A stretch of 64,000 bases of DNA from Shigella phage sb1, in sequence record PQ666539, one strand, 5' to 3'. Each line of letters begins with the position of its first letter. The first letter of the stretch is position 1. Positions 34,976 through 35,392 of the stretch are shown piece after piece. Both the position numbers and the translations under genes were made by a program. The notes under the pieces are model-generated. The model searched no databases. It saw only the letters and a program-made list of their open reading frames with translations, and had not been told where the DNA came from.

Positions 34976-35392
34976 TTAAATGTAAATATTTTTGCCGTAA
35001 TACTTATACCAGTATGGCTTCATTAAAATTTTTTCATCGAGTCGTTGTTGACTCAACTTAATATCTGATTTTCATGGATTATAATAATTTTTACATTCTG
35101 CTGGAATATCGCTGATGTCAGGAACTTCAGTATCTTTTATACTAAACCCACGTTTTAAGCATTCCATTATAATGTCTGATTGACGCTTTCGCAAAAATTC
35201 TAACTTATCGTAAAAGAACGTAACATGACCAGAACCTAAAATAAACTCGGAAGATATTTTAAAATCTTTAACCCGTTTACCATTTGCCACGTGTTTACGA
35301 ACTATACCAAAAACACGTGGCAATTCACGGTATTCTGCGATTAAATGTTGATCAGCAAGTTCAGATACTAAAGTCAAATTAATACGAGTCAT
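34976..35392 (-). pseudogene. denV: Endonuclease V (pyrimidine dimer glycosylase) DenV, 138 codons with in-frame TGA at 35072..35074
   Basis: Track ORF 35072..35392 [17 protein letters not shown]...; frame continues [31 protein letters not shown] to TAA at 34976; total 138 codons as T4 EndoV. Confidence 0.75.

Follow-up and report, generated by a model that had tools for sequence, protein, structure and literature searches.

The record of Shigella phage sb1 (PQ666539) contains a denV gene whose reading frame is broken by an in-frame TGA. Does this codon mark the loss of a DNA repair function in a living phage, is it decoded as an amino acid, or has it entered the sequence by mistake? From the 64,000-nucleotide stretch of this genome analysed here (the window) and from related records, we put the probability at about 65% that the TGA arose as a mistake in the genome sequence, as deposited or as assembled, and that the living phage does not have it. 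The gene and its surroundings are laid out as follows.

34976..35392, minus strand: denV, consisting of 106 sense codons, TGA, 31 sense codons and TAA (translation)
35072..35392, minus strand: 5' part of denV, 106 sense codons up to the premature TGA (list of open reading frames, translation)
35072..35074, minus strand: premature TGA at codon 107, which is TGC (Cys) in intact alleles; the changed base is 35072 (T on the plus strand)
34976..35071, minus strand: 3' remnant of denV, 31 in-frame sense codons and TAA, encoding the conserved C-terminus (ungapped against residues 108-137 of 2END)
34976..34978, minus strand: terminal TAA of denV (translation)
35452..35946, minus strand: gene e (lysozyme), the upstream neighbour of denV, a 164-aa open reading frame
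34493..34966, minus strand: internal virion protein gene, 157 aa, the downstream neighbour of denV (list of open reading frames; so annotated in pSs-1 and P8)

A preliminary description of this locus identified it as denV with an in-frame TGA at 35072..35074, and held that the frame continues to 138 codons, the length of T4 endonuclease V (EndoV), through a conserved C-terminus. Translation and comparison agree with it on both points. The read-through product (138 residues) aligns without gaps to residues 1-137 of T4 EndoV (PDB 2END) with E = 8e-68, and it matches Pfam family PF03013 (Pyr_excise) with a score of 50.1 bits (cut-off 23) over residues 1-86. Because of the gapless alignment and the Pfam match, the frame that follows the TGA is attributed to homology and not to chance. 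The MTRINL... and ...EYRELPR segments match 2END residue for residue, and Thr2, Arg22, Glu23 and Arg26 are all encoded in the 5' part of the gene, in alignment with the T4 enzyme. Thr2, with its alpha-amino group as the nucleophile, and Glu23 are the catalytic residues of T4 EndoV.

The resemblance to T4 extends to the genomic neighbourhood, which includes lysozyme e and internal-protein genes in both phages, and to the C-terminal part of the protein, since R117, K121 and WYKYY of T4 EndoV are all encoded in the window downstream of the TGA. A difference lies at codon 107, where the window has TGA and T4 has His, and the open reading frame of denV in the window ends after 106 residues. The gene is therefore not a single uninterrupted reading frame of ~138 codons that includes the C-terminal segment.

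The placement of denV between e and the 157-aa internal virion protein gene is a pSs-1-like Tequatrovirus arrangement, and the best matches to the window over 20 kb are pSs-1-like phages at ~96-96.6% identity. Judged by sequence, the phage is a pSs-1-like Tequatrovirus and not T2 or T6. Its lysozyme has 97% protein identity to the T2 and T6 lysozymes, and its 157-aa internal virion protein has 98% identity to the one encoded next to e in T2.

Classically, T2 and T6 show a greater UV sensitivity than T4. This background led the preliminary description to propose that the TGA might be a lineage feature of T2 and T6, that is, their inactive v allele, and to suggest an alignment with their denV genes. 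The T2 and T6 sequences contradict this proposal. A search of the whole 163.8-kb genome of T2 (AP018813), with EndoV proteins and with denV DNA as queries, gave no denV homologue, which shows directly that the reference T2 genome has no denV at all; where synteny would place it, only 87 bp separate the internal-protein gene from e. In the part of T6 examined (AP018814, 55000-75000), the locus has no denV and no internal-protein gene, and e lies directly beside regB. The T2 genome and these 20 kb of T6 thus offer no denV to align. A chimeric query gave a hint of denV elsewhere in T2 ('2 places'), and this candidate was rejected because the second place is a 48-bp intergenic match and not denV.

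T2, and very probably T6, lacks v function because the gene is absent and not because of the TGA seen in the window. In T2, and at the examined locus of T6, the gene is missing altogether (deleted or never acquired), whereas in the window it is point-mutated, although the outcome, no functional v product, would be the same if the TGA were real. With denV missing from T2 and from the T6 locus, and with pSs-1-like phages as the closest relatives of the window, the idea that the stop is the inactive v allele of the T2/T6 lineage has next to no probability.

The stop is best compared with the intact alleles of the pSs-1-like phages. The denV genes of pSs-1, sb3/CDR3, P8 and Ec_YwIITB1 share 96-98% nucleotide identity over 417 bp with that of the window and have the same flanking genes. 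The nearest intact alleles (P8, pSs-1, sb3, Ec_YwIITB1 and one IMG/VR contig) carry TGC (Cys) at codon 107, so one C>A transversion in the coding strand accounts for the stop. Two of the other denV sequences have peculiarities of their own. Ec_YwIITB1 (PQ356294), a recently deposited record, has a private GAT>TAT change of the same G>T type at codon 119 (D119Y), where a conserved Asp is replaced. In metagenome contig OBRH01000009.1, an allele that is otherwise standard carries a frameshift at codons ~120-122, in the A-run of ...GATGAAAAAATT...; the cause is an assembly error at the homopolymer or, alternatively, a natural disruption that arose independently.

Residue 107 is variable among 30 distinct EndoV homologues, being T, S, H, C, N or P. 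From this position onward, 13 positions are at least 90% conserved in the same set, including R117, E120, K121, W128, Y129 and K130, and R117 and E120 are invariant. The 106-residue product lacks the conserved R117, E120, K121 and W128-Y129-K130. It would also be without helix 3 and the aromatic segment at the C-terminus, which the T4 enzyme requires for dimer-specific binding. The TGA allele, if real, would accordingly be a null allele. No exact match to the 106-aa product is present in a collection of 15 billion proteins.

A stop codon need not end translation, and a real TGA could be decoded, either by tRNA-Trp readthrough of UGA-A or by selenocysteine insertion, to yield some full-length EndoV. 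Several features of the locus invite this reading. The change from TGC to TGA joins the classic Cys/Sec codon pair, the base that follows the UGA is A, and a UGA-A sequence is the leakiest UGA context in E. coli. Trp might be tolerated at a residue as variable as 107, and an 8-bp hairpin is located 17 nt downstream of the stop. This hairpin, however, falls within the conserved LSQQRLDE codons and also occurs in alleles with TGC, and its AACAAC loop is, as we understand it, without SelB-binding features. A search downstream of the UGA gave no SECIS element and no other Rfam family even at E = 10. The TGA is also found in no relative outside the sequencing project: a sense codon is present in 241 records, in six metagenome contigs and at all IMG/VR loci. 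Recoding is thus excluded in practice, and we give it very little credence. Weak spontaneous readthrough of the UGA would be incidental if present.

The hairpin itself occupies window positions 35018..35056 on the minus strand (denV codons 113-119), with a stem of the UUGAGUC/GACUCGA type. A 73-nt segment that contains it has a folding z-score of -2.75; the codons are strongly conserved, and no function is suggested.

The preliminary description had added the caveat that the window holds many other nonsense codons, and this caveat has become the central point. When 107 pSs-1 coding sequences are mapped onto the window, at least 21 in-frame nonsense codons are found relative to pSs-1, a count that is a lower bound, and 20 of these are of the G:C>T:A type. 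The changes of this type are GAA>TAA (12), TCA>TAA (3), TAC>TAA (2), GGA>TGA (2) and TCG>TAG (1), plus the TGC>TGA of denV. Seven of the stops fall in genes 46, 57A, 3, 5, 6, 9 and 10.

4676..4678, minus strand: TAA at codon 333 of gene 46 (TAC>TAA)
44247..44249, minus strand: TAA at codon 71 of gene 57A (GAA>TAA)
45504..45506, minus strand: TAG at codon 83 of gene 3 (TCG>TAG)
49212..49214, plus strand: TAA at codon 486 of gene 5 (GAA>TAA)
50418..50420, plus strand: TAA at codon 35 of gene 6 (GAA>TAA)
57107..57109, plus strand: TAA at codon 218 of gene 9 (GAA>TAA)
58189..58191, plus strand: TAA at codon 290 of gene 10 (TCA>TAA)

The remaining nonsense codons are private to the window and, with one exception, are also G:C>T:A changes.

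3667-3669, minus strand: nonsense codon in rpbA (G:C>T:A)
11924-11926, minus strand: nonsense codon in nrdH (G:C>T:A)
12917-12919, minus strand: nonsense codon in nrdG (G:C>T:A)
13399-13401, minus strand: nonsense codon in nrdD (G:C>T:A)
31250-31252, minus strand: nonsense codon in vs (G:C>T:A)
21188-21190, 21753-21755, 22294-22296 and 25911-25913, minus strand: nonsense codons in unnamed genes (G:C>T:A)
38039-38041, 38353-38355 and 39753-39755, minus strand: nonsense codons in unnamed genes (G:C>T:A)
41066-41068, minus strand: nonsense codon in an unnamed gene (TAT>TAG, not G:C>T:A)

The seven numbered genes are all defined by conditional-lethal mutants in T4. Because of the stops in them, the sequence as written cannot have come from a plaque-forming phage. 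A changed genetic code is excluded as a way out because the stops are a mixture of TAA, TGA and TAG that replaces Glu, Ser, Tyr, Gly and Cys, three kinds of stop for five amino acids, and because there is no suppressor tRNA: a tRNA scan found a suppressor anticodon in none of the ten phage tRNAs of the window. Stop-codon reassignment was rejected as well, as no single stop consistently replaces one amino acid.

The bias seen among the stops is also present in the substitutions at large. When changes are polarised with five outgroups (pSs-1, sb3, KNP5, KNP1 and SH-1), 512 derived substitutions in 50 kb prove to be private to the window. Among these, G:C>T:A changes number 184, compared with 26 of the reverse type (binomial p = 2e-30). 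They comprise 16 synonymous, 136 nonsynonymous, 16 stop and 16 intergenic changes, whereas the private transitions are 193 synonymous and 64 nonsynonymous (Fisher p = 1e-43). The G:C>T:A changes affect ~1.1-1.2% of the G:C positions in the window, and they are evenly spread, with neither a strong trinucleotide context nor strand coordination. In the window, an unselected layer of G:C>T:A changes lies over a genome that otherwise evolves normally.

Changes that are shared among the records of the sequencing project have the same character. Shared G:C>T:A changes are divided into 4 synonymous and 20 nonsynonymous or stop, whereas the remaining shared transversions are divided into 15 and 8 (p = 0.001), and the split does not differ between shared and private G:C>T:A classes (p = 0.29). 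The shared changes therefore look as unselected as the private ones. In a haplotype-block test, shared transitions occur in blocks as short as those of shared G:C>T:A changes, in genomes that differ every ~35 bp.

The short blocks are a general property of these records. Over window positions 1..50000, a difference from sb2 occurs roughly once per 35 bp, and identical blocks have a median length of ~80 bp, which holds around shared derived transitions as well. This fine mosaic may reflect intense recombination or a chimeric consensus assembled from mixed lysates.

The denV stop can be accounted for in the same way as the others. An unselected G:C>T:A layer lying over a normal pSs-1-like T-even genome would produce stops wherever it struck GAA, GGA, TCA, TCG, TAC or TGC, and codon 107 of denV would be one such TGC. 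The real phage would then most likely carry an intact 138-codon denV, whose product would act as a normal pyrimidine-dimer DNA glycosylase/AP lyase with catalysis by the Thr2 N-terminal amine and Glu23.

One property sets the denV TGA apart from the other nonsense codons. It is the only one of the 18 in the first 50 kb of the window that is found in a second record. A 41-mer centred on the stop, used as the query so that every 28-base seed spans the stop, has its only match outside the window in Shigella phage sb2 (PQ666540) when 50,697 phage records are searched. The TGC version of this 41-mer with the standard neighbouring bases matches 241 phage records, 239 of them at 99% identity or better, and a 41-mer with TGA on the standard haplotype matches no phage record. 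The TGA 41-mer was not found in IMG/VR or JGI metagenome contigs. The TGC form is present in six metagenome contigs and one IMG/VR contig, all with the standard haplotype, and denV is open at all 34 of 34 IMG/VR loci.

The denV of sb2 (phage AKR2), annotated as a 321-nt coding sequence, carries the same TGA as the window together with the same three linked substitutions, all of which lie within 30 bp of the stop in both records.

35093, minus strand: W100C (TGG>TGT), G:C>T:A, linked to the TGA, only in the window, sb2 and sb4
35086, minus strand: D103Y (GAT>TAT), G:C>T:A, linked to the TGA, only in the window, sb2 and sb4
35064, minus strand: A110D (GCT>GAT), G:C>T:A, linked to the TGA, only in the window, sb2 and sb4

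Codons 100, 103, 107 and 110 thus read TGG, GAT, TGC and GCT in the intact pSs-1-like genes, and TGT, TAT, TGA and GAT in the window. A third record of the project, sb4 (PQ666542), has W100C, D103Y and A110D, and keeps TGC at codon 107. The replacements are unusual for the family: position 100 is F, W or L in the 30 homologues and is Cys in none, and position 103 is D in 27 of the 30 and Tyr in none. These changes also bear on a segment that the preliminary description took as a sign of real divergence from T4. The sequence AECKNYYNP does differ from T4 EndoV, but as old divergence the observation stands only in part, because the nearest intact alleles have AEWKNDYNP, and C100 and Y103 result from G:C>T:A changes that are confined to the window, sb2 and sb4.

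Such sharing would be expected if the TGA were a genuine null allele of denV in local pSs-1-like T-even phages from a Kolkata lake, spread by descent or short-patch recombination, with the other 20 stops being artefacts. The window and sb2 differ by ~3.4% overall, and independent random errors would hardly ever coincide, with fewer than 0.4 shared sites expected per 50 kb. The allele of sb4, with three substitutions and no stop, could be an intermediate, and the radical or unusual replacements W100C, D103Y and A110D would fit relaxed constraint around a dead gene. The gene is also an accessory one. Of the 531 phage records that match a 561-bp e-denV-ip query, only 299 match denV itself, so about 40% of related records are without it, as are T2 and, at the locus, T6. 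Because denV is dispensable, a real nonsense allele would be tolerated, and its loss by point mutation would be unsurprising given the number of related records that lack the gene.

The composition of the cluster speaks against a natural origin. All four denV changes (TGA, W100C, D103Y and A110D) belong to the G:C>T:A transversions, which is exactly the class found throughout these records at lethal positions. This class makes up five of the seven shared-derived changes in denV, compared with ~12% (25/208) across the 50-kb region, which does not fit a natural, transition-rich decay. Outside the project, the haplotype occurs in no other laboratory's phage record and in no metagenome or IMG/VR contig searched, whereas the TGC 41-mer is carried by 241 records. 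Finally, the shared patch spans no more than 86 bp and has no independent recombination marker. We consider a genuine allele possible but doubtful.

A comparable group of changes is located elsewhere in the window. Three nonsynonymous G:C>T:A substitutions form a tight cluster at 28717, 28761 and 28890 (H63N, R48L and T5N in the homologue of pSs-1 gp122). Only sb4 also carries them, and the cluster resembles that in denV.

The records that share these changes come from one source. Phages sb2, sb3 and sb4 are AKR2, CDR3 and TMC4 of a single Kolkata study, in which genomes were sequenced from a Twist enzymatic-fragmentation library with PCR on Illumina NovaSeq and assembled with SKESA; plaque purification and coverage are not mentioned (PMC11993411). 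In the fourth genome of that study, ADG1 (PQ666539), GC is the lowest of the set (35.16%) and the number of proteins is inflated, at 285 compared with 254-255, and the reported order of GC is ADG1 < TMC4 < AKR2 < CDR3 (PMC11993411). Over 49.7 kb of aligned columns, GC is 34.57 for the window, 34.63 for sb4, 34.82 for sb2 and a nearly equal 34.84 for sb3, so the deficit of the window has the same rank as, and a similar size to, the published one of ADG1.

The sister records differ in how heavily they are affected. Over this 50 kb, sb4 carries 25 nonsense codons of its own; its lysozyme gene is split into two coding sequences, and ATT replaces the start codon of denV. In sb2, DNA polymerase gene 43 is annotated as two coding sequences, and sb3 looks clean. 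The sb4 record has an additional excess of A:T>T:A changes (129 private) and strand-coordinated G>T/C>A clusters.

We infer a technical cause behind the G:C>T:A layer from the substitution bias, the absence of selection on it, the stops in essential genes and the restriction to records of one project. Candidates for this cause would be oxidative G>T damage and an assembly or sample-mixing problem. Excess G>T/C>A is a known signature of oxidised guanine artefacts in Illumina libraries (Costello et al. 2013, PMC3616734). The changes in the window belong to the same class and, like these artefacts, affect both strands, are unselected and extend over the whole genome. Artefacts of this kind are normally present at low allele fractions and stay out of the consensus, whereas the window changes are in the consensus, and a few are common to sister assemblies. 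Oxidative artefacts should not reach the consensus at NovaSeq depth. The oxidised-guanine mechanism alone does not explain consensus status and sharing between sister assemblies. It also weighs against an artefact that we cannot name a technical route by which the same four errors would arise in separate assemblies with different local haplotypes. The flanks of denV in the window are SH-1-like and not sb2-like, and the sb2 gene differs from that of the window at 16 other sites, including private D95Y and T114/K115 in sb2.

The choice between an artefact and a real allele matters for how these records are used. If the TGA were real, the truncated EndoV would be inactive and the phages would be UV-sensitive like T4 v- mutants, although the null allele might be leaky through UGA-A readthrough. 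UV repair would then be in the course of being lost in nature, by a route unlike the outright absence of the gene in T2 and T6. This would illustrate, on a minor scale, how a T-even phage can lose an accessory repair gene through a point mutation. If, as we favour, the TGA is an error, the lesson is a more general one. The window, PQ666540 and PQ666542 all bear a heavy unselected G:C>T:A load, and findings of pseudogenes, truncations or recoding in them should be discounted pending read checks.

Two further features of the window concern its relationships to other T-even phages. Ten tRNA genes are located at 41561..42388 on the minus strand (Arg-TCT, Asn, Tyr, Met-CAT, Thr, Ser-TGA, Pro, Gly, Leu-TAA and Gln-TTG), a set that is closer to that of T2 than to the eight of T4. 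Gene 1 (dNMP kinase, 44459..45172) has an 18-nt in-frame gap relative to pSs-1, and the same 714-nt gene is found in the annotations of sb2 and sb4.
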